A stretch of 64,000 bases of DNA from Candidatus Saccharimonadia bacterium (GTDB lineage: Bacteria > Patescibacteriota > Saccharimonadia > UBA4664). Each line of letters opens with the position of its first letter. Positions within the stretch are counted from its first letter, which is position 1. The notes under the pieces are model-generated. The model worked only from the letters and a program-made list of their open reading frames with translations. It made no database searches and had not been told where the DNA came from. The stretch is from the NCBI GenBank assembly GCA_038245115.1, contig JBBRSS010000005.1, positions 3,141 to 67,140 on the forward strand. Reading direction: 5' to 3'. A program made the position numbers and the translations under genes. This document shows positions 36,494 to 64,000 of this stretch, one piece after another.

Positions 36494-36494
36494 A

Positions 36495-38705: not shown

Positions 38706-38707
38706 GA

Positions 38708-41179: not shown

Positions 41180-43050
41180 TATTGTTCCTCGCCTGCGGCC
41201 GGTTGGGGATTCTTGGTCCCGCCGGGATTAGTTGATATGAGCTCGGTCTCGGTATCGGACGCTAAGATGCGGATAATTACATGGTTGAGGCCGGCAAAGA
41301 AGAGGCCCTCGCCTACCGGGAATTGGCTGAGGCGGTTTTTCTCCCCTTCGGTGAGTTTGAAGGTCTCGGCGATGATGTCGGTGGCGCTGGGGGCCTGCTT
41401 GAGGAGGAGCTGGAGGGATGAGTTGGCGACTACGGCCCGGCCCATTTTGCTGCCCAAGAAGTCCTCGACGTCTTGCGAGATGGTGGTGAGGCCGAGGTAA
41501 TACTTACGGGCGCGTTTGGCGAGCGAGAACATGAAGCTGGCGGAGTCGTCATACTTCATGAGCTGCCAGGCTTCATCGACTATGAGCAGGCGTTTGCGGC
41601 GGTCGGATTTGACTTTGTTCCAGATGTAATTGAGCACAATGTACATACCGACGGGGCGGAGGGCGTCTTCGAGGTCGCGGATGTTGAAGACCAGGAAGGG
41701 GTTGTCGAGCTCTACGTTGGACTGTTCGGAGAAGATGCCCGAGAACGTGCCGGTGGTGTACTGGCGAAGGCGCTGGGCGAGACTGGCGCCGGTGCCGGTC
41801 ATAGAGGCAAGCGTGTTGTAGAGGTCGTTCATGGTAGGCGGGGTGGCGCTGTGGGTGAGGGGGTCACGGGTGATGCCGGCGCGGGCGTAGGTGTTGATGA
41901 TGGCGGCGTCTAGATCGGCTTCTTCGCCCGGGGTGAGGGGGCTAGAAAGGGTGGCGCCGGTGGAGGTGTTGACGGTAGCGCCACCCATCATTAGCCGCAG
42001 GAGGCCGTGGAGCGAGATAATGTTGGCCTGGAGGGCGTTGTCGGCCTCATCTTGGTCGAAGACGCGGGGAAGGTCGAAGGGGTTGATGCGGGTTTTGGAG
42101 GCTAGGCTGAGACGCAGGTAGGTGCCGCCGACGGCGTCGCAGAGCGGCTTGTACTCATCTTCCGGGTCGATGATGATGCATTCGACGCCCATCATGAGGC
42201 TGCGCAGAGCTTCCAGCTTGATGGCAAAAGATTTGCCGGCGCCGGACTTGGCGAAGACAACCATGTTGGCGTTTTCGAGGCTGAATCGGTCGAAGAGAAC
42301 GAGGCCGTTGTTGTGACGGTTGAGGCCATACAATATGCCCTCGTTGCGCGAAAGGTCGGATGAGGTAAAAGGAAAGCTAGTGGAGAGGGCGCCGGTGTTC
42401 ATGTTGCGCGAGATCTGCATTTGGTCGGTGCCGAGCGGGGTGGTGGAGTTGAAGCCCTGCTCCATTTGCATGGTGGTGGGCTTGGTGTAAACCAGTGATT
42501 GGCCAAAGATGCCTTCGATTTTACGGGTGACTTGAGTAAGGTCCTCGATGGTGTCGGCGTACATGGTGAGGTAAAGACCAAAGCGGAAGAAGCGCTCCTC
42601 CCCTACTTGGAGCTTGTCGCGCAGTTCTTCGGCGTCCTGAATGGCGGCTTCGAGTCCAGGGTCGCGCACGAGACCTTTTTCTTGGTTGATGGTGTGGCTG
42701 GCCTCGAGTTGGCCCATTTTGCGCTTGAGGTTGGTGAGTACAATTTGGCTTTCCACCGGGTAGATAAAGAGTGAGATATCGATGAGCTCATCAAGGTTAA
42801 TGATGGGCGATAACCAGCCGGTGAAGACTTGGCGGGGGTAACCGTAAACATAGATGGTTTTGCAGTAGCGCTTGCCGAGGCGCAAATAGGCTGACTCGAC
42901 TTCGATAGACGGCGGCGCAATGAGGTCGCGCATCGTGACGATACCTTGGCGATAGATGAGGTCGGCTTCGCGAGATTCCATGGTTTTTTGCATGTGCTCA
43001 AGCTGGGCCTGATCGATCTGGGGTGTCGATTTTTTGCCAAATAATCCCAT
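41179..43050 (-). CDS. virB4: VirB4/TrbE/CagE-family T4SS ATPase (ATPase domain portion)
   Basis: Walker A 'VVFAKSGAGKSFAIK', Walker B 'LLIVDEAWQLM'; 623 aa. Confidence 0.85.
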   Translation of the reverse strand: MGLFGKKSTPQIDQAQLEHMQKTMESREADLIYRQGIVTMRDLIAPPSIEVESAYLRLGKRYCKTIYVYGYPRQVFTGWLSPIINLDELIDISLFIYPVESQIVLTNLKRKMGQLEASHTINQEKGLVRDPGLEAAIQDAEELRDKLQVGEERFFRFGLYLTMYADTIEDLTQVTRKIEGIFGQSLVYTKPTTMQMEQGFNSTTPLGTDQMQISRNMNTGALSTSFPFTSSDLSRNEGILYGLNRHNNGLVLFDRFSLENANMVVFAKSGAGKSFAIKLEALRSLMMGVECIIIDPEDEYKPLCDAVGGTYLRLSLASKTRINPFDLPRVFDQDEADNALQANIISLHGLLRLMMGGATVNTSTGATLSSPLTPGEEADLDAAIINTYARAGITRDPLTHSATPPTMNDLYNTLASMTGTGASLAQRLRQYTTGTFSGIFSEQSNVELDNPFLVFNIRDLEDALRPVGMYIVLNYIWNKVKSDRRKRLLIVDEAWQLMKYDDSASFMFSLAKRARKYYLGLTTISQDVEDFLGSKMGRAVVANSSLQLLLKQAPSATDIIAETFKLTEGEKNRLSQFPVGEGLFFAGLNHVIIRILASDTETELISTNPGGTKNPQPAAGEEQ

Positions 43051-43784
43051 TATACTGGTGCCCCTGGGAGCGGCCCGCGAGGAGCGGAACCAGTACCCTT
43101 GGTGACGGCGGGCGCGCCAATTTGGGAGGTATCGATGAGCTTCTGGTTGGCGGCGACGTCGGGGTTGTACCAGGAATAGTAAAGGTCTACCAGTTCCTGG
43201 GTGCCGAGCGAGATGGCTCGAACGCCCATCTGGGCCATGCCGTTGGCGGCCAAAGCCATGCGCTGCGATAGTTCTTGCTTGTGTTTATGAAAGTCTTCTT
43301 CGCTGATGGTGATCATTGGAGTGGTTTCAAAGGCACCTTTGAGCTTGTCGATCAAGTTGGAGCTTTTTTGCACGGCTGAGGGCGGAAAATATGGGATGAC
43401 CACGTAGAATTGCTTGTCCATGATGTTTACCTCTTCCACGAGAGCACGAATATTGGCGATGTAGTCTTCCATGAGAACCCCAAGAAGTTCGTTGGGCTGT
43501 TCGGCGCGTAACTTATCGAGCTTTTCAAGGTAGTTAGAAATATCGATTTTCTGGCTCTTAATAGATATTTGTACGGGGAAGTGCAGGGAATTGAGAAAGC
43601 CCTGATAAGCCGACTCTACTGCTTCTTGTTCGCTCGGGTTCATGAGATCAAAGTTGATGGCACTACTGAGGATGACTCCGCGCAGGGAGCCATCTTTCAT
43701 TACCACAATTCCATCCTTGATCTCGGCGATCAGGAGGGTATCTTGGGCACTCTTTCCGCTGTGGTTACTGGCGTTAGCTGCCAT
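43050..43784 (-). CDS. VirB4 N-terminal-domain-like protein, apparently a split-off N-terminus of VirB4
   Basis: 'LLIAEIKDGIVVMKDGSLRGVILSSAINFDLMNPSEQEAVESAYQGFLNSL' resembles the conserved N-terminal region of Gram-positive-type VirB4 homologs. It is TAATG-coupled to the ATPase ORF. Confidence 0.45.
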   Translation of the reverse strand: MAANASNHSGKSAQDTLLIAEIKDGIVVMKDGSLRGVILSSAINFDLMNPSEQEAVESAYQGFLNSLHFPVQISIKSQKIDISNYLEKLDKLRAEQPNELLGVLMEDYIANIRALVEEVNIMDKQFYVVIPYFPPSAVQKSSNLIDKLKGAFETTPMITISEEDFHKHKQELSQRMALAANGMAQMGVRAISLGTQELVDLYYSWYNPDVAANQKLIDTSQIGAPAVTKGTGSAPRGPLPGAPV

Positions 43785-44583
43785 TTACGGGAATCTCCAA
43801 GGTTTGTCCGTTTGGCAGCTGAACCCGGCGGGTTGCCTGGGCAGCAAGCTGCGTCACCGTTAACTCATCACTCTGCGTTGCTAGTTGGATTATATCGTTT
43901 GGGGGCGCTACTGTCACGCCGCTTATGCTTGTAGGAGCTGGGGCACCTTTGGTGGGGCGAGCCACTTTGCCGGTCATTTGCTGGAGGGCTTCCTGGCGAA
44001 CATCTTCGGCCGAGGCACGGAGTAGTTCGGCCAGGTTGAGCGCGAGTGGGCTTTGTTGGAGGTCGAGGATGTCGTTGGGTACTTCGCCTGGTATGGGTGG
44101 CGGTGTTGGAACTATGCGGTCGGCGTGGGCAACAGAGGGCGCAATCGGGGATGTTTCCGGCACCTGAGGGTGGTTCCAGCCGCGCGAGTCGATGAGACTG
44201 GCGAGTTTTTCGAGCTCACTTCGAACTTCGTCGGGGTTACGTTGGGTAGCTTCGGCGGCGAGTACGGTGGCTTCCACGTGGAAGGTCTCGATGATGTCGT
44301 CTTTGGCCCAGGCACGGTGGCGAGACGTGGCAAAAAAGCCGACCATAGCAACCAATAGCTGCTCAAAACTCTGGCCGTCGCGATTGTAGAAGGCTAGCAG
44401 GAATAGTAGTAGTGCGGGCGGGAAGCCGATGACTATCAACAGTATGGGAACCTGGCGAAACAGCGCGAAACTGATGGCTGACCAACCAAAACCCATCAAG
44501 AAGTAAATAAACTCCTTGAAAGTTAACGGGCCAAGAATCTTGTCCTCGGCCTCAACATTTTGCGGCACCTTATACTGGCCCAT
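43774..44583 (-). CDS. VirB3/PrgI-like two-TM T4SS protein with a C-terminal extension
   Basis: 'NVEAEDKILGPLTFKEFIYFLMGFGW' followed by two TM helices, typical of VirB3-like proteins; 269 aa. Confidence 0.4.
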   Translation of the reverse strand: MGQYKVPQNVEAEDKILGPLTFKEFIYFLMGFGWSAISFALFRQVPILLIVIGFPPALLLFLLAFYNRDGQSFEQLLVAMVGFFATSRHRAWAKDDIIETFHVEATVLAAEATQRNPDEVRSELEKLASLIDSRGWNHPQVPETSPIAPSVAHADRIVPTPPPIPGEVPNDILDLQQSPLALNLAELLRASAEDVRQEALQQMTGKVARPTKGAPAPTSISGVTVAPPNDIIQLATQSDELTVTQLAAQATRRVQLPNGQTLEIPVNGS

Positions 44584-44640
44584 AAACTAGGAGCTCCACC
44601 TCGATATCACATTAAGCTTACGCTAAAACTAGGCGGGGGG

Positions 44641-47600
44641 CTAGGGGGTCGGAGGGGGCGGTTCTGGCGGAAGTACGGCGCCGTCTGAGTCGATATAAGC
44701 CTTGAGAATATCTGGCTGGCCGGTGCCGCCCTGTTTTTTTAGCCATTTATCTTCGGCTCCGGCCTTGTCACCTGCCTCCGCTATGAGCTTTATTATGTCT
44801 TTACCCGCTTTACCGTTTGATCCCTGTCGTGCGTTTAGAGCCCTGAGAGCCTTGGGGTCTTGCAGGTAGATCCACATTTGCGCATAGTCATCGGAATTCA
44901 GGTCCTTTAGAACCTGTGCGTTACTCAGAGATTGTTGGATGTTACGGGTGGATTCATCATAAATACTCGGCTTATCCACTCGTTTGGCGTATTCGAAATA
45001 GTTCTTTTTTTCGCCCCAACCGGATCGGCCAAAATCCGATGAACTGTAGCCATCGTAGGCTGCGTCTTCGGGCATAAAGAAGTCTTTGGAGACAGAGGAA
45101 CTGTTCTTTGATTGGATAATTTCCCAAAGTTCGCTGGCACGGCCGCCAAATCTATCGGGGTCGATTAAGCGGTCTTCGTTGCGCCCAAACAAATCTCTTT
45201 GGATTTGGCGAACTCTTTCTCGCCCGCTACCCGTTAGAGAAAGTCTTCCCATAAGCGCAATGGCACGATCCTCGTTTTCGGGTGTTAGTTTGTCGCCGTC
45301 TTTCAGGAGTGTTCTGATTTCAGCATCTTGGGCAGTAACTCCTTCTGGGCCTAAGTTGGCATTCTTAACAGTGTCGGTATGTGCGACTCCGTCAGCGTCC
45401 ATGAAGGTAAAGTCTTCGTTGCCAGCCTTTTCGACGCGATCACTTAGTATCTTTAAGCGCTCGGACTTGACTACATGGCCTTCGGCGGCTTGATAAGTTT
45501 GATTTAGCGATGCTCCGGGACGCGTAAGGTCGTAGCGGGCTCTGGCGGCGCCAGATTCGGCAGCTAATGTTGCTACGGAGCCTTCGGTTTGGGCGGCTAG
45601 GCGCTCTCGCGCATTGAGTCTGGTGGTAGAAGAATCAACCGCTTGATTGAGGGCGGCAGTTTGTGCTTGGTTGGAGGCTTCTGTGCGCATCGCCGATTCT
45701 TCTGCGGCTGTTGCGGCAGATGCGATTACAGCCTGTTCGCCTTCTATTGGATTTAATATTCCTGCGCTTGCGCTCGTGATTTTGTCGGCTGCTGCTCTGC
45801 CAGCTTTTTCGCCTCGTTCGGCACCGAGGGTATCTCGAGCCTTTGCGGCCTGGTTTCGTGCTTCCTTTTCGGTGAACAGGAGGGCTGCCGTATCCTTACC
45901 GTTCTTATCCTTTATCTTGGCAGTTTTAGCGGCTTTATAGGATTCTTCATAAGTGTCAGTGCGGGCGTTTTCATCGGCACGTTCATAGGCCGCTGCCTTG
46001 GCTTTTCGCAAGGGGGCTTCTCGGGCCTGCTCGATGGCCGCATCATATGCCTGGATAATACCCCTGTCTTTTGCAGTAGTCGTAGCAAATTCTGTGCTCG
46101 TAGCAATTTGTTTGGCGCGGGCGGCGACTTTGAGATTATCGGCGCGGACTTTCTGGGCCGCGGCCGCGGTGGTGATGCCGCCTACAGCAGCGGCGGCGGC
46201 AATTTCGGCATTGACGGCGGCGGCGGTAGTTTTGACGGCAGCGTCGGAGATGGCGGTGGTGCGTTCGGCGGCGTAGACGGCAGCGTCGGTGTGTTGGCGG
46301 GTGGAGGCGGCGGTGCCGGTGCGCACGGCGTTGACGGCGGCGAGGCGTTGAGCGGAGTCTTGCGCTGTTTTAGCTTTGGCGGTTTCGGTACCGGCGATTA
46401 CGTGGTCTGCCAGTCGGGGGGCAGGGTTGCCGTCACGCTTGGCTTTGGCGATATCCTCTTCCTCCTGGGCGATCTCTTGTTTTTGGGCTCCGATGCTCGT
46501 ACCGATACGTTTATTGGCTTCGCTTCGACTAGCTCTCATGGTGTCTGATGTCGACAGGTAGCCTTCGGGTGTGGCCTGGAAGTCGGCGCGGGCCTCACGA
46601 ATAGTGCGGGCGCTGGCTAGTTGTTCGCGGGCGGCTAGCGTTTCGCCGGTAACGAGTTTATTGAGATTTTCTTGTCCCGAAGCTGATGTGATGGCGTTGC
46701 GGGCGTTGATTTGGCCTTCGGTGGCCCCAATCTTTTCGCGTTCTTGGGTATGGGTGGCGGCGGACAGGTTTTGCAGTCGCATACTGCGGGCCTCTGCCAG
46801 ACTGACGCCACCGGCATGAGCGGCCTCTCGTGCATCGAGGGCGGCATTGGTGGAGACGTTGGTATTGGCGGTTTGTTGGGCGGCTACAACTTCTGCTACG
46901 CCGGTGTTGGTTTTGGCGGTAGTGACATTTCGCAGGCGCATATTCCGCGCGTCGGTAGCGCTGATACCGAGGTTTTTTTGCATAATCTTTTCCGCTGCGG
47001 CGCCGCCCTCAACTACGGAATTGATTCCAGCAAGCTTTTCCGAAGCTGAAAGAGCAGCGGTTGTCTGTGCGGCAGACACCTTTTTGGCGGCGCTAACGTA
47101 TTCGCTCGTACCCTTGAGGCTCTCGTTGAGTTTATCGCGCTCAATGTCGCCTTTGGCCGTGCCTGCGGCGGCTAAGTAGGTGTCACGGGTATTAATGCGT
47201 GCCTGGTTTTGTTTGTCTAACGCACTCGGCTTTCCGGCACCGTTGTAGCCCGCTAGGACGCCTTCGCGCGCACCGCGGTTGGCGGCTTTTTCATCGAGGA
47301 TGCTCTGAGTGGTGGACAGGCGGCGTTGGCGGAAGTCTTCGGGCCTAGCCTCTTTGGACATGCGGTTATCGGCATCAATTGTGCTTAATTCTTTATCGGC
47401 TTTGCCCACGGCTTCGCCGCGTCTTAGCTTTGCACTACCGGAACTTCCCGACAGGCCGGCTCGGCGCCAGTTCATGGCAGCTTTGCGGTTGAGAGCGGCT
47501 TTATGTAAGCCGTGGGCGTTTTTGGCATTGCTCTCGGCAATCTTGGCAGCGGCGACATTTTTGCGCTGGCGGCCTTCGGAAAGGTCTCTGGCGAGATCGC

Positions 47601-49278
47601 TGTCTTTGCCGTAGCGCTTGTCGACAGCGCCACCGAGCTTGCCGATGGCACCACTTCCCATTGCGAGGCCCTTGCCGGCGAATTTAAACGCGAACGGGAC
47701 GACAAATAGCGGGACGGTGAGTCCGGCGATGGCAAAGAATGGTGCAATCCAAGCGGCTCCCGTGAGACTACTGCCTGCACCGGCAGTCTTGGAAAATAGT
47801 CGACCGATCTCGATGAGCAGCATGATGATTGGATACAGCATGACGAGCTTGAAAAAGTTCTGCCACCATTCCCGGAACCATTTTTCGGTGTTGGGCAGAA
47901 TCCAGAGTAGGATCGCAAACGGACTGATGACAATAAGCATCAGAATTAATATTTTGCGGAATATCAGAGTGAGGAACACGCCGGCGAATGCGATGAGAAG
48001 CGAGACTATGGCACAAAAACCTAGGACGGTAACGGCCCCAACTAAAGCAAAGGTGCCAAGGCCGCCGCCGGTTCCAAGGAATAGTGTGGTGAAGTTGGAG
48101 GTAAGGTCGATTGTCGGCGTACCAATAACATCGGTCATGAGCGAGACGAGACCTTGGCCGAGTACGTTGCCGATGTCAATTAAGAAGGCGCAAAGCTGCC
48201 AGGAGAATGGCACCAGTATAGCTCCCGCCACCAAATGCGGTAAAACTTTTTTGATAGTGTAGTTGTCGAAGCCAATAGCCGTGCCGATGATGACGAGGAA
48301 GAATATAAGTATAAAGAAGACACTCGCGACATTTCTGAAAGCAGACCAAATGGCGTATACGGGTTTAACGTCAGTTTGGTTTTTGTCGAGCGGGGGCTCT
48401 TTGAGGAACGGTATGATGATGTCGTCACGGATTTGGTCGACTACACCTACAAGTGTAGTAATGGCGTCGCAAATCAGCCAAGTGAAACGGGCAGCCTCAC
48501 AGTTGACGGGCTTCTCTGCTGCGGACGTTGCGGACGTTGTGGGCGTTGTGGGCGAAGGCGGAGCGGTGCCCTGCTGGAGCGTAACGGAGTTGGTGCCGGC
48601 TGCTAGAACAACACCTGTTTTGGTGATGTTTATGCCAGTGGTTAAGCCGGTCGGGCTCCGGTATTGGCCGGAGGCTTTAACGGTGTATGTGCCCGGCTTG
48701 ATGCCACTAATCGAGAATGTGCCATTGGTGATTGGGGCCGGACTAGGCGTGCCGGAGTTGGGCGTAAGGGTAACGAAACCAGATTGCACACTTACGAACT
48801 GTTTGGCTGCAGGGTCGTAGAATTGTACCGTACCACTAAGACTGGCGTTTTTAACGGCTACCTTGATAGGGGTGACCGTAATGGTTCTTTTAGTCAACGT
48901 ATTGGATGGAGCGCACACGCCAGTTGCGCTGCCGAGTATTGTTCCCCAGGTTGTAGAGCTCGTAGGGCTACCGGTAGCGTCCGTTACCGAAATATTGAAG
49001 CGACGGATGTTTGTACAGGCGTCGCCAACGCCGGAATTAGTGAAGCCGATGGGGCCCGATTTCCAGGTCTGAGATGCGCTATCGAATGTGAAATTAATGA
49101 AAACAGGTTGTTGGGTAGTATCTACGCGTCTAGCCGATACTTCGACGTTGCTAACCTTGGGGTTTAACGTTATTTCGAATGATGCGTCTCCGGGGGCGCC
49201 CATAGCTGGAGCTGAAGACAACAAAACAGATATGCTCGAAAAAAGCGCGAGAAAAATTCCGAACCACCTACGTCTCAT
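44641..49278 (-). CDS. Giant VirB6/TrbL-like polytopic membrane protein (1545 aa) with an N-terminal secreted beta-rich domain and a ~700-aa Ala/Lys/Glu-rich low-complexity region
   Basis: Signal peptide. A ~6-8 TM block ('ISPFAILLWILPNTEKWFREWW') is VirB6/TrbL-like. A long A/K/E/T-rich tract follows, then a C-terminal globular domain. A 9-bp x4 tandem repeat at ~48523-48560 encodes a Pro/Thr linker. Confidence 0.5.
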   Translation of the reverse strand: MRRRWFGIFLALFSSISVLLSSAPAMGAPGDASFEITLNPKVSNVEVSARRVDTTQQPVFINFTFDSASQTWKSGPIGFTNSGVGDACTNIRRFNISVTDATGSPTSSTTWGTILGSATGVCAPSNTLTKRTITVTPIKVAVKNASLSGTVQFYDPAAKQFVSVQSGFVTLTPNSGTPSPAPITNGTFSISGIKPGTYTVKASGQYRSPTGLTTGINITKTGVVLAAGTNSVTLQQGTAPPSPTTPTTSATSAAEKPVNCEAARFTWLICDAITTLVGVVDQIRDDIIIPFLKEPPLDKNQTDVKPVYAIWSAFRNVASVFFILIFFLVIIGTAIGFDNYTIKKVLPHLVAGAILVPFSWQLCAFLIDIGNVLGQGLVSLMTDVIGTPTIDLTSNFTTLFLGTGGGLGTFALVGAVTVLGFCAIVSLLIAFAGVFLTLIFRKILILMLIVISPFAILLWILPNTEKWFREWWQNFFKLVMLYPIIMLLIEIGRLFSKTAGAGSSLTGAAWIAPFFAIAGLTVPLFVVPFAFKFAGKGLAMGSGAIGKLGGAVDKRYGKDSDLARDLSEGRQRKNVAAAKIAESNAKNAHGLHKAALNRKAAMNWRRAGLSGSSGSAKLRRGEAVGKADKELSTIDADNRMSKEARPEDFRQRRLSTTQSILDEKAANRGAREGVLAGYNGAGKPSALDKQNQARINTRDTYLAAAGTAKGDIERDKLNESLKGTSEYVSAAKKVSAAQTTAALSASEKLAGINSVVEGGAAAEKIMQKNLGISATDARNMRLRNVTTAKTNTGVAEVVAAQQTANTNVSTNAALDAREAAHAGGVSLAEARSMRLQNLSAATHTQEREKIGATEGQINARNAITSASGQENLNKLVTGETLAAREQLASARTIREARADFQATPEGYLSTSDTMRASRSEANKRIGTSIGAQKQEIAQEEEDIAKAKRDGNPAPRLADHVIAGTETAKAKTAQDSAQRLAAVNAVRTGTAASTRQHTDAAVYAAERTTAISDAAVKTTAAAVNAEIAAAAAVGGITTAAAAQKVRADNLKVAARAKQIATSTEFATTTAKDRGIIQAYDAAIEQAREAPLRKAKAAAYERADENARTDTYEESYKAAKTAKIKDKNGKDTAALLFTEKEARNQAAKARDTLGAERGEKAGRAAADKITSASAGILNPIEGEQAVIASAATAAEESAMRTEASNQAQTAALNQAVDSSTTRLNARERLAAQTEGSVATLAAESGAARARYDLTRPGASLNQTYQAAEGHVVKSERLKILSDRVEKAGNEDFTFMDADGVAHTDTVKNANLGPEGVTAQDAEIRTLLKDGDKLTPENEDRAIALMGRLSLTGSGRERVRQIQRDLFGRNEDRLIDPDRFGGRASELWEIIQSKNSSSVSKDFFMPEDAAYDGYSSSDFGRSGWGEKKNYFEYAKRVDKPSIYDESTRNIQQSLSNAQVLKDLNSDDYAQMWIYLQDPKALRALNARQGSNGKAGKDIIKLIAEAGDKAGAEDKWLKKQGGTGQPDILKAYIDSDGAVLPPEPPPPTP

Positions 49279-54914: not shown

Positions 54915-55007
54915 GGAGAGGTACCCAAGTGGCTGAAGGGGCGGGTTTGCTAAACCTGTAGGGGGGAGTAATCCCCCGCGAGAGTTCGAATCTCTCCCTC
55001 TCCGCCA
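54915..55007 (+). tRNA. tRNA-Ser (anticodon GCU), class II with a long variable arm
   Basis: Sequence GGAGAGGTACCCAAGTGGCTGAAGGGGCGGGTTTGCTAAACC... The acceptor stem GGAGAGG pairs with CCTCTCC. The anticodon loop is TTGCTAA. There is a long variable stem (GGGGGGAG/CTCCCCC region), a T-arm GTTCGAATC and an encoded CCA. Confidence 0.85.
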
Positions 55008-55066
55008 GAGCATTAGCCCGATTTCGCATTGCGGATCGGGTTTTTGCTTTGCTATTTTTCCCGCGA

Positions 55067-56602
55067 TCACGGTGAAACGATCACCCAATCGGCGTTTTGA
55101 TAGTCGGTTTTGTAGCGGCAGGCTGCAAAGTAATCTATCTGAGGTTTCATGGTAGTTCGATCAAGAATAACGCCGGATACCCGGCCGTTTTTAAGGTGCT
55201 GAGTTATTAGATTACACGGGAATGCGGGGGTGGCGATGTCACGAAGGAGGTTGTTCCAGGCGTGATAATTTGGGCTTTCCGGGGGTTGAACGTTGAGCAT
55301 GCGGGTACGGCTGAGCCACGGGAATCGCATAACGGCCCAATGGCTGCCGATGAAGGACTGCTGGGGATGATTCTCGAGGTAATGCGCCGTCTGCCGATCG
55401 GTGGCGGTGACGGTGACGGGTCGGAGATTTGCGGCAAGATATTGGCTTTGGGCTTCGTAGCTTATGGCTATGAGAATGATTACATTGGTGGCAAGAACGG
55501 CTAATATATATTTTCGATAATGGCGGGCTAGCGTGAGATTGGCGAGCCGCACGGTTGTCAGAGTGAGAGGGAGCAGCAGAATTAGGACAGAACGACGCCA
55601 GCTGTGAACGGGAATAAGCTGCCAGACGGTCGAAACCGTAAGCCATACGCCAAGGTATGGATCGATGGCGCGAGTTATCATCACGCGGGTAATCTGATCT
55701 TTTCTGAGCGTGAGTGCTGCCAATATTAGAGCGATTATGATGCCAATGAGTAGCGGTAGTAAGGTTTTGGGCTCGAAGAGAGTGATATTGGTGGCGAGTT
55801 GGTTGCGGAAGAATTCGTTGGTGTTCCCCAACCAGGCGTAGTAGGCGCCGGCCAAGAGGGTGGGCAAGATAAGTGTTGACGTTCGAAGGTGGCGGAGCCT
55901 GTTGGATTTGCCGGAGATTAATGCCCAGGCGACGATAATGGTTAGCCAATAAAAAATATAATACGGATGAATTAGAGCCCATGCTCCTGCCAGTAGCCCC
56001 AGTAGCGGCCAAGTACGAGTATTTTCACGGTTAATATACAGGCCGCCGAGGCAAACTATGGTCATGAGGATTGAGAATAGATCCGATGGCGAGGCAATTG
56101 TTGCGTACACGAGGGAGGCATCGGTGAGCTCGCGGCCGAAGCCGAGTAGCATTAGCGGAAATGGTATGAACACCAGGAGGCCGCATAGCCATAGCATGGT
56201 GCGGTTGGGATTTTGGTCGGTTTGACGGCACCAGGCGCGATTGAAATAGAATAGTGCAATCCCGATGCCGATAAGTAAGATGAGGCGGAGGCCGATGGCG
56301 GCTAACGCGGGTGAGTCGAAGTGATATAACGAGTGGCTGAAGCTCCAGAGGAGCTGGACGCGGCAACCGCCTTCGTTGAGCGTGGAGGTGAGGTTTTGCA
56401 GGCAGATGGTGGGGCTGGCAATCAGGATGTTGTAGATCCGATCGTCGACTGTGAAAGCGGGGATGACCTGGGTGGAGCCGGCGGTGAATACTGTTCGGAG
56501 CAGGGCAACAATGAAGCCGCCGAACCCTATGAGCAGAGCAAGAATTAGGCTCAGGCTGAGGGTAAGTGCGGCCGGAGGAGATTTGAGAGACAGTCGTGTC
56601 AC
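55067..56602 (-). CDS. Polytopic membrane protein (PMT/ArnT-like glycosyltransferase candidate)
   Basis: 511 aa with more than 12 TM helices. It is the last gene of a four-ORF translationally coupled operon. Confidence 0.45.
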   Translation of the reverse strand: MTRLSLKSPPAALTLSLSLILALLIGFGGFIVALLRTVFTAGSTQVIPAFTVDDRIYNILIASPTICLQNLTSTLNEGGCRVQLLWSFSHSLYHFDSPALAAIGLRLILLIGIGIALFYFNRAWCRQTDQNPNRTMLWLCGLLVFIPFPLMLLGFGRELTDASLVYATIASPSDLFSILMTIVCLGGLYINRENTRTWPLLGLLAGAWALIHPYYIFYWLTIIVAWALISGKSNRLRHLRTSTLILPTLLAGAYYAWLGNTNEFFRNQLATNITLFEPKTLLPLLIGIIIALILAALTLRKDQITRVMITRAIDPYLGVWLTVSTVWQLIPVHSWRRSVLILLLPLTLTTVRLANLTLARHYRKYILAVLATNVIILIAISYEAQSQYLAANLRPVTVTATDRQTAHYLENHPQQSFIGSHWAVMRFPWLSRTRMLNVQPPESPNYHAWNNLLRDIATPAFPCNLITQHLKNGRVSGVILDRTTMKPQIDYFAACRYKTDYQNADWVIVSP

Positions 56603-56862
56603 CGATTTCGGCTTCGAATGAAGGCGATGAGTTGCTGTTTGAGCTGGCTGTAGGCCGGTTTGCCCAGGGTTGCAACGCCAGCTATAAAACTGATCTCGGC
56701 TGATACGAGGACGATGATCCAGATGAGCCCTTGATGGCTCACGTGGGTAAATGGGATGATGAATTCAGCTGCCCAACCAAGACCGGCCAGATAAATAAAT
56801 GTGATCCCAATTTTGAGGCGGTGTGTTAGGAGCGGCAGATTGGGTTTTGGGCGGGCAATCAT
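56599..56862 (-). CDS. Small two-TM membrane protein
   Basis: 87 aa; ATGA overlaps on both sides. Confidence 0.4.
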   Translation of the reverse strand: MIARPKPNLPLLTHRLKIGITFIYLAGLGWAAEFIIPFTHVSHQGLIWIIVLVSAEISFIAGVATLGKPAYSQLKQQLIAFIRSRNR

Positions 56863-57020
56863 TGTAAGGATTTGAGCTCACGCTGCAGATTGGCGCAGAG
56901 CAAGATTTGCTGTGTAGGCTCGAGGTAGTCGAAAATTTCTAGCCAGTAATTGAGCTCGCCCGGATCTTCGCCGAGCCCGATTAGCTGGTGAACGAGGGTA
57001 GTGAGTTCAAGCTTGTCCAT
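56859..57020 (-). CDS. Small ORF (53 aa), translationally coupled
   Basis: Reads MDKLELTTLVHQLIGLGEDPGELNYWLEIFDYLEPTQQILLCANLQRELKSLQ. Stop/start overlap TAGATG upstream and ATGA downstream. Not in the track (below 60 aa). Confidence 0.3.
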   Translation of the reverse strand: MDKLELTTLVHQLIGLGEDPGELNYWLEIFDYLEPTQQILLCANLQRELKSLQ

Positions 57021-57665
57021 CTATGCGGCCCTCTCAGCTTCAATTTGGGGGCCACTCTTAGGGTAATCTCGAATGTCGGCGATTATCTTTCTAATCTTGA
57101 GCTCGGTGGCTGTTTCGGCTTTGGCGGTGAGGTTCGGGTTGGAGGCCATGAACTTGGCCGATATTTCGAAAATACGAGCCGATTTGGCGGCTCCTTTTTC
57201 GGCCAGGCTGGCAGCCAACTTTCCGACTAGGTTTACGCTTTTACCGGCCAACATAGTCCCCTCTGGGATATCTTCGATACCGGTGAAGTCTAAGGCCAGA
57301 CTGCCGGCACCCATAGCGGCGTGTATGATCCGACTTCTTCCACTGACCTCATTGCCGTCAAGGGTTGTACTGGCGATAGATTCGGTGAGCAGCTTGCTTC
57401 CGCCTAAGAATGGAACAAGATTGAGGCCGTTGCTGACTAGGGGCGAGGTTAGGACACCCTTGAGAATGTTTCCGCGTTCGGCACTAGCTTGCTCGATGAC
57501 TTTGTCTCTCTCCGCGCCTGACTCGGGCGTAGCTTGGGTGTCACGATGAGCTTCTGGGTGAGCGCCGGCTTCGGCACGGATAGCGAGAAGCTCGTCGGTG
57601 AGGGCGTCGTGTGATTCGGCTTCGTTTATATCGGGCTGATCTTCCATTAAGTCATTGGTGTCCAT
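57021..57665 (-). CDS. Hypothetical protein, first gene of the coupled operon
   Basis: 214 aa, acidic N-terminus, no recognisable motif. Confidence 0.4.
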   Translation of the reverse strand: MDTNDLMEDQPDINEAESHDALTDELLAIRAEAGAHPEAHRDTQATPESGAERDKVIEQASAERGNILKGVLTSPLVSNGLNLVPFLGGSKLLTESIASTTLDGNEVSGRSRIIHAAMGAGSLALDFTGIEDIPEGTMLAGKSVNLVGKLAASLAEKGAAKSARIFEISAKFMASNPNLTAKAETATELKIRKIIADIRDYPKSGPQIEAERAA

Positions 57666-57764
57666 AAGTTTAGCCGCCTATTGTTAGAGCAAGAATTGGC
57701 GGAACACACGGGTCTGGAACTCAGAATATGTATCAATTTTTTACACTTTACAGATAATAATGGG

Positions 57765-57808
57765 ACAAATGAGACACAGAACACCTATATGCGTCGTGTC
57801 TCATTTAT
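57765..57808. repeat. Palindromic element copy 1: AAATGAGACAC-N18-GTGTCTCATTT
   Basis: Reads GGGACAAATGAGACACAGAACACCTATATGCGTCGTGTCTCATTTATAGG. The 11-bp arms are perfect reverse complements. Confidence 0.6.
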
Positions 57809-57840
57809 AGGTAGCTAGTAATGTTTTTGGGCTTTTGCGG

Positions 57841-58905
57841 CTACGCTGCTGAGCTCTGTTCTTTGTCGTTGTATGTTGGTCGCGCTTCGGCAGGTGCAGC
57901 AGCAGGTAACTGATATAGCTTATCTGCGCCTAGGTCTGCAACGATTTGACTGCGTACGGCTTCCATTTTGATCTTGTATTCTTCACGAGCAGCTACAACT
58001 TCAGAGGCTTTCTTGTCGAGCATAGCCTGTAGCATTTCCTTAGCAGCGTCACTACTTGCCGTAGCAAGCCGCTCCTCAAGTTTGATAATTTCATCGCCAA
58101 AGACTTCATCTGTAATTGTTTGCAGCTCTGCAACGCCTGCTTCTCCCACGGCAATTTTTTCCTCTACAGTAGCTTTTGCCTGCTCAAGGTCAGTAGAAAA
58201 CTTTGCGTATTCCGTTGCGTGTATACCACGAATGCCTTTTAATAGTCCGAGTGAGTCGTTTGTCTCGCGGAAGTTCTCGACAAGGTCAGGATGATTGTTG
58301 AGTAGATTATCGAAGTCTCCGCTCATTAGTAGTCCAGAACTATCTGTATAGCCACCGGTATCACGGCCGCGATGTACGCGGTTTCCGTCAACATCATGCA
58401 TGACTCGCTTATTCTCAACGCTGAACATCTCGTATTTACGAAAACGTTCCATCGCACTAACGTGTGTATTGGCGTCTGCTACGCCGCCAAGCGTTTGATC
58501 CAATCGCTCTGCAAGTGCGGCCATCGGCTCGGCTTTTATTGCTCCGTAAAGTTCTTTTTGCTCGCTTTTCTCTGGGGCAAGCTTTTGTATAACATCCTGA
58601 AGCGTACCTGCTCGCCGTCCATCTTTGTCATAGCCTTGCATTGCATCGAGGAACTTGTCTGCTCCATAACGATCAACCATTACTTGAAGTCCTGCACCTA
58701 TAATACTACCCTCAAGTCCTCGCTGTACCTCGTCTATACCATGTAGCTCGCCGGCTTTTTGTTGTAGGGTGTCAATATCGCTTTTTTCAAGAGTTTTCTC
58801 TTGCTCTAGAAGCATAAGTCCAGTTTCAACAGGCGCATTTTGTTCAACCGTGTCGCTAGTTTGCTCTTGGGGTTGTTCTGGTGTCATTCGGATGAGTTCA
58901 CTCAT
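57841..58905 (-). CDS. Hypothetical protein in the lower-GC segment
   Basis: 354 aa (MSELIRMTPEQPQEQ...). Predicted helical; no recognisable motif. Confidence 0.4.
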   Translation of the reverse strand: MSELIRMTPEQPQEQTSDTVEQNAPVETGLMLLEQEKTLEKSDIDTLQQKAGELHGIDEVQRGLEGSIIGAGLQVMVDRYGADKFLDAMQGYDKDGRRAGTLQDVIQKLAPEKSEQKELYGAIKAEPMAALAERLDQTLGGVADANTHVSAMERFRKYEMFSVENKRVMHDVDGNRVHRGRDTGGYTDSSGLLMSGDFDNLLNNHPDLVENFRETNDSLGLLKGIRGIHATEYAKFSTDLEQAKATVEEKIAVGEAGVAELQTITDEVFGDEIIKLEERLATASSDAAKEMLQAMLDKKASEVVAAREEYKIKMEAVRSQIVADLGADKLYQLPAAAPAEARPTYNDKEQSSAA

Positions 58906-59203
58906 GCTTTCCTTTTCCCTTGTAGTGTTATTTTAGTTGTTTGTTTTTGTTCTAACCTGCTAACAATATAGCATACGTAGGTAATATTGTCAAGGTAACG
59001 CAACCGTTCGGGGAGGTTCACTATTGAAATCACAAGAAACTAAATAGCCAGTAGTTTATATTCGGAGACATATCCTGTACTAGTTGGCCCATGTTGTTTT
59101 ACAATATATTCCTCTTCTAGGAGTATGTCAGTGTAGTCAGCCTCTAGGTGGCCGATTGTTAAACTCCTGGACTTTGTACCCCATTGCGGTACATTGTCCT
59201 TGT

Positions 59204-59983
59204 ATGGAATCAATCGTATCCCAACAGACACCACAGGTAGCAAAAACAGCACTGATTCGCTGGTGTTTGTACGCTCGCAAATCCAGCGAGCAAGACGAAC
59301 GCCAAGCCTTATCAATCGAGCAACAAATCAAGGAAATGCTACTACTTGCCGACCATTGGGGCATAGAAATAGCCGAAGTTCGCAAAGAGAGTCATTCCTC
59401 CAAAGAATCAGGCACTAGGCCGATCTATAACCGACTTATTAAGGACATTCAACTTGGCTACTTCAACGGAATTGTGACATGGGCACCTGATAGGTTGTCC
59501 CGAAATGCCGGTGACCTTGGTATTCTGGTAGATTTGATGGATCAGGGTAAGCTCGCGGAGATCCGCACTCACGGTCAAACGTTCACTAACTCGCCAAATG
59601 AGAAGTTCCTGCTGATGATTCTTGGCTCACAGGCCAAGCTAGAGAACGATAACAGAGGCCTCAATGTCATCCGGGGACTACACAACAAAGCCGCCAACGG
59701 CTGGAGACCTGGAGTTGCGCCGATCGGCTACCTGAATAATGGTCTCGGCGATGAGAAGATAATTGTCGATGAAATTCGATCACCGATCATTGTAGAAATG
59801 TTTGAGAGAGTCGCCAAACAAGCCTACACCGGCCGGGAAGTAAAACGCTGGCTCGATGGCATAGACTTCGTAAGCAGACATGGTAAACGCCTCGTCTTAA
59901 GCCATATTTACCGTACGCTAAAGAATCCCTTCTACTACGGCGAGTTCCAATACCCCAAGACCAGCGAAACGATGCATCACTGA
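59204..59983 (+). CDS. Large serine recombinase, N-terminal catalytic (resolvase-type) domain; the ORF ends at an in-frame TGA
   Basis: 'TALIRWCLYARKSSEQDERQ' has the Ser nucleophile in a YAR-x-SS context. 'GIVTWAPDRLSRNAGDLGILVDLMDQGKLAEIRTHGQ' is a resolvase motif, and the recombinase-domain motif begins at 'GWRPGVAPIGY'. The likely start is the ATG at 59204; the track begins at 59084. Confidence 0.6.
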   Translation: MESIVSQQTPQVAKTALIRWCLYARKSSEQDERQALSIEQQIKEMLLLADHWGIEIAEVRKESHSSKESGTRPIYNRLIKDIQLGYFNGIVTWAPDRLSRNAGDLGILVDLMDQGKLAEIRTHGQTFTNSPNEKFLLMILGSQAKLENDNRGLNVIRGLHNKAANGWRPGVAPIGYLNNGLGDEKIIVDEIRSPIIVEMFERVAKQAYTGREVKRWLDGIDFVSRHGKRLVLSHIYRTLKNPFYYGEFQYPKTSETMHH

Positions 59984-60568
59984 AAACATGCACCGATAAT
60001 CAGCAAAGATCTGTTTGACGAAGTCCAGATCCAGCTGACGGTAGCCCCAAAGGCTCCAGCAGGTACCAAAGAGTTTAGTTTCACTAGGATGATCAAATGT
60101 GGTGTTTGTAAAACGGGTGTTACAGCAGAAGAAAAGTTGAAGAAGCTCAAAACTGGCGAGATCAGACGGTATGTGTACTACCACTGCGGTAGGGCAAACG
60201 ATCTTGACTGCATCCAGCCATACATTCGCGAAGGCGAACTGATGATCGAGTTGCTTAATGTTATCGATGAGCTTGAAATAGATGAAATAGGTGCTCACCA
60301 ACAGTTCAAAGAAGAACTCATACGATATGAGAGGTTTATAGGCGTATTAGAGCAAAGTAACAATAGTAGTTCTCAAAAAACCAAGCCAACGATCGATCTG
60401 AAAGCATACTCAAAGTATGTGCTGCAACATGGAACTAAAGAAGAAAAGCGTGAGATTCTCCAATATGTAACCGGCGAATTATTCCTCAAAGATCAAAAGG
60501 TCTATGTTGAGCGAAAAACGAGGTCTAAAAAGTTTATCCCGGCCAGTTCGAATCCCATCGCCATCTGA
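59984..60568 (+). CDS. Large serine recombinase, C-terminal recombinase/zinc-ribbon portion, same frame as the N-part
   Basis: The region immediately after the TGA reads 'KHAPIISKDLFDEVQ', typical of large serine recombinases. It is followed by a zinc ribbon 'CGVCKTG...YYHCGRAND' and a coiled-coil. The track ORF starts at 60089. The 59984-60088 interval is 35 in-frame codons with no stop. Confidence 0.55.
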   Translation, partial: KHAPIISKDLFDEVQIQLTVAPKAPAGTKEFSFTRMIKCGVCKTGVTAEEKLKKLKTGEIRRYVYYHCGRANDLDCIQPYIREGELMIELLNVIDELEIDEIGAHQQFKEELIRYERFIGVLEQSNNSSSQKTKPTIDLKAYSKYVLQHGTKEEKREILQYVTGELFLKDQKVYVERKTRSKKFIPASSNPIAI

Positions 60569-60738
60569 ACGGGAATGGTCAAAATTCACGCACCACATAA
60601 CATTTTGCGGTAATTAAAAACGACCTTGTACCTTTAGTATGCACTTTAGGTGGACGGGTCGTTTTAGAACTTTATTCTTGGCGGAGCAGCCGGGTCAGGA
60701 ACTTTCCGACTGTCTCAAGGATTATATCCCTTAAGGAG

Positions 60739-60791
60739 GAAATGAGACAAATAAGACACTATAAAAAGGGGATTGTTTCGTGTCTCATTTC
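60739..60791. repeat. Palindromic element copy 2: GAAATGAGACA-N31-TGTCTCATTTC
   Basis: Reads GGAAATGAGACAAATAAGACACTATAAAAAGGGGATTGTTTCGTGTCTCATTTCGAAG. It shares its arms and a loop ACAC(C)TATA core with copy 1. Confidence 0.6.
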
Positions 60792-60924
60792 GAAGCCCTC
60801 GTAGCCTTGACTTGACTGAATCGCTATTACAACGCATGGGCTAGCGTTCTGACCTTTTAATCCGCTTAAGCTTGCATTATCAGATAGGGAGAGTAGTTAA
60901 TGGTGCCTTAAATAGGAATAAATC

Positions 60925-61088
60925 ATGGTACAAATTAGCAAACAGGATCTCGAAGAATTTAAGCGTATTACTAGGGAAATGCGTGACCTAGAGTTTCCCA
61001 ATGATGAAGCGGCAATGCGGGCAGCTCAGAGGCTAGTCCGTTTGTTCGAAAAGAGACGCACCCTAAAACTTCCAACTTTGAAGTCTTA
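60925..61088 (+). CDS. Small ORF (54 aa), speculative
   Basis: Reads MVQISKQDLEEFKRITREMRDLEFPNDEAAMRAAQRLVRLFEKRRTLKLPTLKS. A 9-bp stem hairpin GCACCCTAA...TTAGGGTGC at ~61055-61095 overlaps its stop. Confidence 0.2.
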
Positions 61089-61107
61089 GGGTGCGGCCCG
61101 ACCGAAG

Positions 61108-61743
61108 TCAGGCCTGCTCCTCGAGAATTCCTTTGGACCTCAAGAAGTCTTCGGGATCTTCGACCCCGTTCTCGATCAGGAGCGTGAAGGCGCAGCCAAG
61201 CGCCTCATCCATTGGCATTATAGCCAGTTCCTCGCAATCCTCAGCTGAGAGCACCTCGCCGCAGACATTGGCAAGTTGCTCGCTGGTTGGCTCTTTGGTG
61301 GCCACTTCTGGGATTCTTTCGCCGTCGGTTTGAACACCTAGTGCTTCTTCCAAAACCGGCATAACGTCTGCAAAGCCCATATTGTCGGCATAGGTCAGTG
61401 CATCCTGCAGATCTTCGGCGTAATTCTCGCTCCGGCCGCCATCACGACGAATCAGACCCATTTGCACAATCAGGCCAATCTGAGCTTTCGCAAAGTCATC
61501 ACCCTCTCGTTGATTGACTACCTCTTCGGCGAGCAAGTGGTAGCGAGTAGCCAACTCTTTGACATCAGCACCGGCCGACATGGCTTCAACCAGCTGTCCA
61601 CGGAGCTGGCCCAGTTCTTCCGTCTCAACAAAGCCCAATGTTTCAGGCAGAGCGTCAATGGCAGGTCTTGCCTCCATTTCGGGGCTCCTTTCAGAATCTG
61701 GTGGCTGTGAAGAATCAAAGCCTAATGGATGTTCATGCTCCAT
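61108..61743 (-). CDS. Hypothetical acidic protein downstream of the zinc-ribbon gene
   Basis: 211 aa, very acidic and helical. A 5-nt gap separates it from the upstream gene. Confidence 0.4.
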   Translation of the reverse strand: MEHEHPLGFDSSQPPDSERSPEMEARPAIDALPETLGFVETEELGQLRGQLVEAMSAGADVKELATRYHLLAEEVVNQREGDDFAKAQIGLIVQMGLIRRDGGRSENYAEDLQDALTYADNMGFADVMPVLEEALGVQTDGERIPEVATKEPTSEQLANVCGEVLSAEDCEELAIMPMDEALGCAFTLLIENGVEDPEDFLRSKGILEEQA

Positions 61744-61748
61744 AGCCT

Positions 61749-63194
61749 CTATTCTAACTTGTCTTTGGCGTCAGTTCTCCTTATTTCTCGGCCCAAGCTG
61801 TCTTTTTTGACGTTAGGGATCTCTTCTTTACCGCTGCTCATCTTAAAATCGAATGTCCGGATAAAGTCAGGCACTGAGTCATCATTATCGCGCATCGGTA
61901 TGATCACTCGGAGTAGCGGATTCATTTTGGATCGAATAAAAGGAATACTGGTCGACTTTTTCTTGCCGCTCTTAAGGGTGATCTCGGCTGGTACCGAATC
62001 CAGAGTCATATTGTGCAGGTAAACCAGGGACGATTCACGAAGGTTGCGCTCTCTTGGGCTCAGCGTTGTCGGTGGATGATCCGGCAGTTCTTCAACTGGC
62101 TTCGCTGTTGGTGGCGGTAAGGTGCCATGCTTGGCTTTTTGCTCGATTAGCTTCCGTAGTTCATCTTCGCTTTCGTAGGCTCGGAGCCGACCGGTCAAAT
62201 AGCCAACTCGGTAACTCACCCCCTCGCTCATCAGTCGCCAATTTGTGTCTTCAAGGGTCTTACCGATCAGTTTTTGCAGATCTTTTTTGCTGTTATATTC
62301 TTCACGCTCTGGTTTAGCGTCTAGGCAACTGAAACCAACAGCCACCTCGCGGCCTAGCTGCGGCTGATCCAGCTTAAACTCGGTGTAGCTAGCTTTCTCT
62401 AGGATTGGTTTCAAGATCTCAGCCAACTGAGCAATTTTGAGCTTCTTGATATCTTTGATGGTCTCATAGATATCGGTATGCACAGCTTGATCAGCGACGG
62501 TAGCCTCGAGCTTCATTAGACGCTCGAGATGACGGCGTTTCTGCTCGTACTTAAACATCATGTCACTATCGAAGACAAACCGCTTATTATCCAGCTCATA
62601 GTTAGGATCGGGTGGCTCTTCTTCGGTACTTCCACCAAGCTCAAAGCTGTCTTGGTAACTATGTCCACATTTTGGGCATTTGTAGGTAATTGTGACAATC
62701 TTGTTATCAGTTTTGCCGGTATGATCCATTGATTCGCCGCATTTCTCGCATAAGGTCTTGGCACCCTCCCACTCGGTGCCGTCTTGCCAGTAAGCCTGGC
62801 GCTTATTGCAGCTATCACACTCAAACATCAGTAGGATATCATCTTCATTGCGACCCTCGCGACGCATATAGTTCTTGCTAATCACCCGCATATCTTTGCC
62901 GCAACTGCGGCAGTACATACTACCCTCGACGTGGGCGTTAGCTAAGACACGGTCTTTCTCTTCGTCCCGAGCCAGCCAGTCATTGATGGTCTGATCACCC
63001 TTTACTGCTCGCGCGGCTGCCTGGGACTCAACGAGGCCAAAATAAAGCTGGCTATAGAACAAGTACCAGGCAGGACGACGTTGTTCAATTTCTGACGGTG
63101 GCACTTTCCGTTCCATCTCGCGGAAAGTGCCATTAACTATTCGTTCGCCAGAGCGACAGCCCTCAACTGTGATCTCGTCATAGACGATCCTCAT
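61749..63194 (-). CDS. Zinc-ribbon-rich protein (four CxxC pairs), tightly linked downstream of the reverse transcriptase
   Basis: 'CRSCGKD ... CDSCNK ... CEKCGES ... CPKCGHS' form two probable zinc ribbons. The C-terminal half is helical and charged; 481 aa. It lies 19 nt after the RT stop. Confidence 0.5.
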   Translation of the reverse strand: MRIVYDEITVEGCRSGERIVNGTFREMERKVPPSEIEQRRPAWYLFYSQLYFGLVESQAAARAVKGDQTINDWLARDEEKDRVLANAHVEGSMYCRSCGKDMRVISKNYMRREGRNEDDILLMFECDSCNKRQAYWQDGTEWEGAKTLCEKCGESMDHTGKTDNKIVTITYKCPKCGHSYQDSFELGGSTEEEPPDPNYELDNKRFVFDSDMMFKYEQKRRHLERLMKLEATVADQAVHTDIYETIKDIKKLKIAQLAEILKPILEKASYTEFKLDQPQLGREVAVGFSCLDAKPEREEYNSKKDLQKLIGKTLEDTNWRLMSEGVSYRVGYLTGRLRAYESEDELRKLIEQKAKHGTLPPPTAKPVEELPDHPPTTLSPRERNLRESSLVYLHNMTLDSVPAEITLKSGKKKSTSIPFIRSKMNPLLRVIIPMRDNDDSVPDFIRTFDFKMSSGKEEIPNVKKDSLGREIRRTDAKDKLE

Positions 63195-63212
63195 ATCTTT
63201 TACGATCCATGT

Positions 63213-64000
63213 CTAATCCTCCTGCTTGGTTAATGCCTTTATTGTAATAAGCTGGCTCAGCTCATATGCGTCGGCGTGAGAGCACAACCCAACGTAAGAC
63301 GTCAGACTGATGATATCCACCCTCTCGAGCGCTCGTAGCTTGGTCTTGTGGCGCAGAACGATACATTGAGGCTTGAGCACATAGCCCAAGAAGTCTATTC
63401 CCTGACCCCAGCTCCGGATGGTGATCTTATTGGGGTGGATCGTAAGACCCAGCCGCACACTTAAGAACTGAGTAATCGGCTCAATCAAATCGAGTAAATG
63501 CTGTCGGTTGGTACTGAGAACAATGAAATCATCACAGTAGCGCAGATAATGCCTCTCACGTAAGCGATTCTTCACGAACCAATCAAACTCATGCAAGTAA
63601 ATATTAGCAAAGAGCTGGCTGGTGAGATTGCCGAGTGGAATACCTTTGCCTGGGCTTGTAGAGAGGCTGTCGATTATCGTTTGAAGCAACTTGAGTGTAT
63701 CTGCGTCAGTAACTTTCTGCTTCAGTAGATCCATAAGAATCTCGTGATCAACCGAGGCAAAGAACTGCTTCACATCACACTTGAGGGCGTACACCGTTTG
63801 GGTGTTGTTATGGCTAGCTTGTCGCAAGAAGGTTCGCAAACGCCTAACTGCCGCGTGAGTGCCTTTTTTCTTGCGGCAGGAATAGCTGTCATAGATAAAC
63901 TGGCGTTCGAATAGTGGCTCAATGGCACTAACGAGCGCCTGATGAACTAAGCGGTCTTGGACAGTAGCCTTATGGATTCGGCGCGTTTTTGGATCGCAAA
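63213..64000 (-). CDS. Reverse transcriptase with diversity-generating-retroelement (DGR)-type signatures; the 5' end runs off the window
   Basis: Manual translation beyond the track ORF gives ...DPKTRRIHKATVQDRLVHQALVSAIEPLFERQFIYDSYSCRKKKGTHAAVRRLRTFLRQ... This covers RT motifs 1-2 ('KCDVKQFFASVDH'), motif 4 'GIPLGNLTSQLFANIYL' with SQ in place of the QG..SP of group II introns, motif 5 'RYCDDFIVL' (YxDD), and a thumb 'IRSWGQGIDFLGYVL'. Confidence 0.7.
   Translation of the reverse strand, partial: CDPKTRRIHKATVQDRLVHQALVSAIEPLFERQFIYDSYSCRKKKGTHAAVRRLRTFLRQASHNNTQTVYALKCDVKQFFASVDHEILMDLLKQKVTDADTLKLLQTIIDSLSTSPGKGIPLGNLTSQLFANIYLHEFDWFVKNRLRERHYLRYCDDFIVLSTNRQHLLDLIEPITQFLSVRLGLTIHPNKITIRSWGQGIDFLGYVLKPQCIVLRHKTKLRALERVDIISLTSYVGLCSHADAYELSQLITIKALTKQED

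Follow-up and report, generated by a model that had tools for sequence, protein, structure and literature searches.

The window analysed here is a 64,000-nucleotide stretch of a Saccharimonadia chromosome (Candidatus Saccharimonadia bacterium, contig JBBRSS010000005.1, positions 3,141 to 67,140) with a type IV secretion-like gene cluster, a tRNA-Ser gene and an interrupted serine recombinase gene. At its far end lies the 3' part of a reverse transcriptase (RT) gene, followed on the minus strand by a gene for a 481-aa protein with four CxxC pairs, here called zn481, and a gene for an acidic 211-aa protein. Very probably, this RT gene, cut by the window end, belongs to a canonical and probably active diversity-generating retroelement (DGR) of the candidate phyla radiation (CPR) type, with architecture B3. 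The RT gene shows the following features in the window:

63213..64000, minus strand: 3' 787 nt of the DGR RT gene, encoding residues 93-353 of a 353-aa protein; stop codon at 63213-63215
63981..63983, minus strand: Arg codon (R98 of protein P0001), aligned with Arg74 of the RT bRT
63956-63933, minus strand: DRLVHQAL in the translated frame
63887-63849, minus strand: SYSCRKKKGTHAA in the translated frame
63782-63744, minus strand: KCDVKQFFASVDH in the translated frame
63635-63615, minus strand: LGNLTSQ, the form taken here by the DGR RT signature [I/V/L]GxxxSQ; aligns to bRT I181-Q187
63542-63516, minus strand: catalytic motif RYCDDFIVL (YxDD box); aligns to bRT RYMDDIVVL

The open frame (63213-63998, minus strand) runs past the window end, and its 261-aa translation, the C-terminal part of the RT, matches Pfam RVT_1 (E = 1.2e-24). 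It is identical at 261 of 261 positions to residues 93-353 of P0001, which, like P0262, is a full-length RT of 353 aa. A sequence-only reading of this locus, made without database searches, had listed a set of RT motifs including LGNLTSQ and RYCDDFIVL and had stated that VTG is absent. All of the motifs that it quoted were found in the translation, and a motif check of the window RT recovered neither VTG nor QGxxxSP; its estimate of a protein of ~300 aa proved too short. The definition of the [I/V/L]GxxxSQ motif and the bRT residue numbers used here follow PMC7826257, in which R74 of bRT is reported to promote adenine mutagenesis.

The same reading had proposed a profile or structure comparison of the RT with DGR, group II, retron and UG/DRT enzymes, and this comparison favoured DGR RTs. 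In a PDB-wide search, the best match was 8ub7_A (328 aa, E = 1.1e-46, aligned over 287 residues), a chain that we take to be Bordetella phage bRT. We do so because its residues R74, I181 and Q187 sit where PMC7826257 puts them in Bordetella phage bRT; a literature search on the PDB code 8UB7 retrieved nothing. At the corresponding positions of this chain, the query RT keeps the Arg, L-G-N-L-T-S-Q and YCDD. The next matches were 8bgj_A (E = 1.4e-20) and the group II RT 6ar1_A (E = 1.7e-19), and Drt2, Drt3a and retron RTs came out at E = 1e-6 or weaker. Given its signature motif and intact YxDD box, the RT is assigned to the DGR clade.

That the gene instead encodes a group II intron or retron RT is vanishingly improbable. 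Some database names for the RT read 'retron-type reverse transcriptase', and the NCBIfam group II RT/maturase model TIGR04416 gives the best NCBIfam E-value (1.1e-40), yet its 139.9 bits stay well short of the cutoff of 300. Matches to the NCBIfam models for group II, Drt, AbiA and retron RTs are confined to the generic RT domain and lie far under the curated cutoffs. A group II intron RT/maturase was rejected on this score, on the motif (LGxxxSQ rather than QGxxxSP) and on Rfam, whose sole match in the window at gathering thresholds was one tRNA, with neither a group II intron nor any further RNA family detected. A retron RT was rejected on the absence of VTG, on the retron St85 model (56 bits against a cutoff of 235) and on the upstream neighbour of the RT, which is the DGR accessory gene avd and not an msr/msd non-coding RNA. 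Moreover, the bRT match at 1e-46 stands against 1e-19 or weaker for group II or retron RTs, and relatives of the RT are accompanied by Avd and by pairs of template repeat (TR) and variable repeat (VR), as described below.

The start of the RT gene, predicted at ~64274, lies outside the window, and the missing part is provided by L001, a 1,425-bp Logan contig that encodes P0001 and reaches 595 nt past coordinate 64000. L001 is 99.6% identical to the window over the shared RT sequence. Within the shared coding sequence there are three differences, all at synonymous third-codon positions, and the remaining apparent mismatches stem from a single 1-nt indel at 63185. Because only these three synonymous changes were found and the catalytic residues are intact, we argue that the RT gene is maintained. 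Besides the N-terminus of the RT, L001 contains an intact 129-aa open reading frame (ORF; L001 396..10) antisense to it, which matches Pfam bAvd (E = 1.2e-17, 64.8 bits, cutoff 40); judged by this match, the near-identical contig carries an Avd gene, outside the window. The earlier statement that no known DGR accessory is present therefore holds for the window itself and fails beyond its edge: the accessory seemed absent because avd lies past that edge.

When the 64-kb window was compared with itself for imperfect repeats in which one copy has A (or T) at 75% or more of the mismatched positions, no adenine-biased repeat pair was found. Neither the VR of L004 nor the TRs of five close relatives matched the window above chance level (best E = 0.45), in line with the earlier remark that no TR/VR is in view. 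L004, a Saccharimonadia metagenome-assembled genome, is the closest genome retrieved, with an RT 92% identical to that of the window. It is colinear with window positions 64000-61780 and 61052-60672, synteny being limited to 60672-64000. Its cassette consists of:

L004 8341-9153: target gene, 270 aa, with the VR within its 3' end
L004 9016-9140: VR, at the 3' end of the target gene
L004 9518-9642: TR
L004 10075..9686, minus strand: avd
L004 10001-11062: RT gene

All of the TR-VR mismatches in L004 (21 of 21) fall at TR adenines. TR and VR share an identical, GC-rich 3' end of 26 nt, and a GC-rich hairpin follows the VR, with none after the TR; the 270-aa target had no Pfam match. By the evidence of these repeats and genes, L004 holds a complete DGR cassette with a diversified VR. 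Mapped from L004 with no indels assumed, the cassette in window coordinates is predicted as:

64200-64589, plus strand: predicted avd
64633-64757, minus strand: predicted TR
65135-65259, minus strand: predicted VR
65122-65934, minus strand: predicted target gene

We therefore infer that the TR, VR and target gene of the window strain would lie ~0.6-1.9 kb past coordinate 64000, the TR/VR pair at 0.6-1.3 kb. With regard to the arrangement of avd and RT, the maximal ORFs diverge, and their 5' ends overlap by ~75 nt (L001 322-396; L004 10001-10075). Their conserved cores, from ~residue 20 of Avd and ~residue 31 of the RT, are separated by roughly 70 nt, which is why the true starts of both genes are probably internal; this gap is likely a divergent promoter. 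Because the TR lies beyond the 3' end of avd, a TR transcript continuing toward the RT would read antisense through avd.

Relatives of the RT were collected from a genome scan (77 loci) and a metagenome scan (80 more), and 159 loci had an RT match. The closest metagenome relatives share 61-65% RT identity over most of the protein, and a 169-residue fragment, L151, reaches 73%. Upstream counts rest on the 112 of 159 loci with at least 1.1 kb 5' of the RT start, and in 80 of these 112 a TR with adenine bias lies no more than 1.2 kb upstream of the RT. The avd gene is antisense to the RT in 73 of 74 cases where it was detectable, and the order TR-(avd)-RT was seen in 70 loci. The TRs are AAC-rich, and across related loci 1403 of 1467 TR-VR mismatches (95.6%) sit at TR adenines. 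Where RT identity is at least 55% and at least 1.1 kb of upstream sequence is available, both an adenine-biased TR/VR pair and an antisense avd are found without exception (28/28). Architecture B3, TR-(avd)-RT, makes up 90% of the CPR DGR set of Wu et al. (2018, PMC5758913), and Roux et al. (2021, PMC8144416) described a CPR-restricted, cell-encoded DGR clade 2 whose targets are usually without recognisable domains; a literature search for Saccharibacteria-specific DGR and Avd descriptions retrieved nothing. Collectively, the clade of the RT, the Avd of L001 and the complete cassettes of close relatives strongly support the first of two alternatives in the sequence-only reading, that of a DGR whose target lies just outside the window.

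In such an element, laid out as target gene (with VR), TR, antisense avd and RT, established DGR biology suggests the following course. The RT-Avd complex would reverse-transcribe TR RNA and misincorporate opposite template adenines. The resulting complementary DNA would then overwrite the VR, at the 3' end of the target, and thereby diversify a ligand-binding surface. Both the placement of TR, VR and target in the window strain and the activity of its element would follow by analogy with the relatives.

It is very unlikely that the locus is instead an orphan or decaying DGR, in which the RT was kept, the TR/VR pair or the target was lost and nothing is diversified. Signs of decay or flux do occur nearby, in the form of an in-frame TGA in the serine recombinase gene, a 1-nt indel at the 5' end of zn481 and a frameshifted zn481 in L004, and the TR and VR of the window strain are unobserved. 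Nevertheless, the catalytic and DGR-specific residues of the RT are all intact, its differences from L001 are confined to the three synonymous changes, and avd is intact in L001. Furthermore, the cassette is complete in L004, the closest genome, where the VR is diversified, and likewise in 28 of 28 close relatives.

Downstream of the RT, the 481-aa protein with four CxxC pairs and the acidic 211-aa protein described in the sequence-only reading were both confirmed. The features 3' of the RT are:

61749..63194, minus strand: zn481, encoding a 481-aa protein with four invariant CxxC pairs, from a family found throughout Saccharimonadia; no part of the DGR
61108..61743, minus strand: gene for the acidic 211-aa protein, which belongs to a small family; no part of the DGR
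61057..61095, minus strand: terminator-like hairpin with a 16-bp stem, 3' of the acidic gene, from a consensus scan only
62340-62354: weaker 6-bp terminator-like site inside zn481, from a consensus scan only

The zn481 ORF starts 18 nt past the RT stop on the same strand. Its CxxC pairs are at C95, C126, C149 and C173, with all eight cysteines invariant in 36 homologues, and the family comprises at least 337 proteins from Saccharimonadia, mostly of ~482 aa. The acidic protein has an isoelectric point of 4.05 (48 D+E against 14 K+R) and only 20 homologues. Searches of Pfam, NCBIfam and PADLOC gave no match above a curated cutoff for either protein. At the 5' end of zn481, a 1-nt indel relative to L001 and L004 (~63185) puts the conserved N-terminus (MDRKRYED...) out of frame, and the window ORF consequently begins at a downstream ATG (63194); in L004, zn481 is frameshifted near residue 335 (L004 12051-12126). 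Either faulty assembly or decay may lie behind the indel and the frameshift.

No promoter- or terminator-like site was found between the RT and zn481. The hairpin at 61057-61095 is the strongest terminator-like one 3' of the RT on the minus strand, and could terminate both the minus-strand genes and a convergent 54-aa ORF (60925-61089). Given the lack of such sites after the RT and the strong hairpin after the acidic gene, read-through co-transcription of the RT and the downstream genes is possible.

The second alternative of the sequence-only reading was that the RT and zn481, possibly with the acidic protein, form a distinct module, for example a defence-type RT system. The same strand, the 18-nt gap and the uninterrupted stretch between the two genes are consistent with such a module. 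The same gene order also recurs in L004 and in L151, whose RT is 73% identical and whose zn481-like protein is only 33% identical; in both lineages (window/L004 and L151) the genes share a strand with a gap of at most ~50 nt. In addition, PADLOC DRT/UG profiles match the RT domain (UG17, E = 1.7e-33). Against this, a hidden Markov model of the zn481 family, run over all ORFs of the 159 RT loci, matched only in L004 and L151. Among the 119 of 159 loci with at least 1.5 kb 3' of the RT, the family is therefore present at this position in 2 and missing in 117, and the first genes 3' of close RT relatives vary by lineage. Conversely, zn481 homologues at 55-72% identity lie in five independent neighbourhoods, none with an RT, among restriction-modification genes and genes for TrbC/TrbL-type pilins, FtsK, AAA proteins and prepilin peptidase, with a divergent ParB_N-N6_N4 methyltransferase in 3 of the 5.

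The acidic protein fares no better as a partner. It occurs in none of the 159 RT loci, L004 included; its gene falls within ~730 bp (61053-61779) absent from L004, where ~68 bp are found instead. The protein (P0241) is also encoded on a 3.4-kb contig that begins 4 codons inside the RT. As for defence profiles, PADLOC matched neither zn481 nor the acidic protein, and the NCBIfam scores of the RT are well under the cutoffs (Drt3a, 77 bits against 200; Drt2, 63 against 390; AbiA, 30 against 250). A defence-associated RT (DRT/UG/Abi) was accordingly rejected on these scores and on an RT-zn481 adjacency in 2 of 119 loci. With the RT already supplied with a full set of DGR partners, we give hardly any credence to a distinct module: zn481 and the acidic gene are not linked to the RT across relatives. 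Nor do they qualify as the 'unusual downstream partners' of the earlier description, in view of the 2/119 loci, the five RT-free contexts and the absence of the acidic gene from L004. Instead, both genes are neighbours on the chromosome, unrelated to the RT, in a region that is variable and rich in mobile elements; at most, read-through would co-transcribe them with the RT. We also noted that another RT subclade (L014, L094 and L100; 57-65% identity) shares a different conserved gene, encoding ~380-440 aa, directly 3' of the RT.

There is a slim chance of a lineage-specific coupling between the RT and zn481, with the latter acting, for example, as a nucleic-acid-binding retrohoming helper, or the gene marking a preferred DGR landing site. 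The one residual oddity in this respect is L151, where the RT again directly precedes a zn481 family member, albeit one only 33% identical. Two points weigh against the interpretation of the locus as a canonical, probably active DGR. The first is that L001 ends ~38 nt before the predicted TR 3' end, so that the TR, VR and target of the window strain are known only by mapping. The second is that the activity of the DGR is itself only inferred.

Next, we compared the locus with known systems. CPR-type B3 DGRs (PMC5758913; clade 2 of PMC8144416) share with it the Saccharimonadia host, the [I/V/L]GxxxSQ RT, encoding by the cell, and an avd antisense between TR and RT. They also share the single short target directly upstream, whose 3' end holds the VR and in which no Pfam domain is recognisable. 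We found no substantive difference, the window showing the 3' part of the RT only and the cassette being read from relatives. Similar to the BPP-1 DGR (mtd-avd-TR-brt; bRT-Avd, PDB 8ub7 series), the RT keeps R74, I/L181-Q187 and YxDD, and the accessory is a four-helix bundle of the bAvd family; in the relatives, too, the TR and VR differ specifically at adenines, the TRs are rich in AAC, and the VR is followed by a GC hairpin. By contrast, BPP-1 has all its genes on a single strand and avd upstream of the TR, whereas here avd is antisense and between TR and RT. BPP-1 is a phage, whereas the present element is on a bacterial chromosome, and the BPP-1 target is Mtd, while the L004-type target is not recognisably Mtd or a C-type lectin by sequence. 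Defence RTs (DRT/UG, Abi) share only the generic RT palm and fingers; unlike defence RTs with zinc-ribbon effectors, the adjacent zinc-ribbon protein here is not conserved with the RT and has no defence-profile match.

Further from the RT, the window contains a large serine recombinase gene (Resolvase, Recombinase and Zn_ribbon_recom domains; 59084-60568, plus strand), in which one in-frame TGA (59981-59983) separates ORFs of 299 aa and 159 aa; the homologue in L018 is unbroken in one frame. This TGA could be a nonsense mutation (making a pseudogene), a sequencing error or a case of recoding. A tRNA-Ser(GCT) gene (54915-55007, plus strand) lies ~4 kb from the recombinase. From 22 to 58 kb the GC skew is strongly positive; after ~58 kb this skew vanishes, and the GC content falls to ~0.47. 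With synteny to L004 limited to 60672-64000, these features suggest an integrated element or island in the tRNA-Ser-recombinase region (55007-60672); no convincing att-like direct repeats were found between the tRNA-Ser and the recombinase region. The type IV secretion/conjugation-like cluster (34952-49278, minus strand) includes 823-aa and 1545-aa proteins with no Pfam match, as well as:

41179-43050, minus strand: VirB4/TraG-type P-loop ATPase
43774-44583, minus strand: PrgI-family protein
36495-38705, minus strand: fusion protein of GH3, phage-tail-lysozyme and VanY

Taken together, the locus is an ordinary CPR-type DGR cut by the window edge, from a group known for its many DGRs, and its significance beyond correct annotation is small. 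It illustrates that an RT at the edge of a window or contig is best judged by extending the sequence and by examining relatives, the 'missing' Avd, TR and VR lying simply out of view. As a by-product, the analysis brought out a protein family that is conserved in Saccharimonadia, has four invariant CxxC pairs, is found in mobile-element, restriction-modification and secretion-system neighbourhoods and is not tied to the RT.
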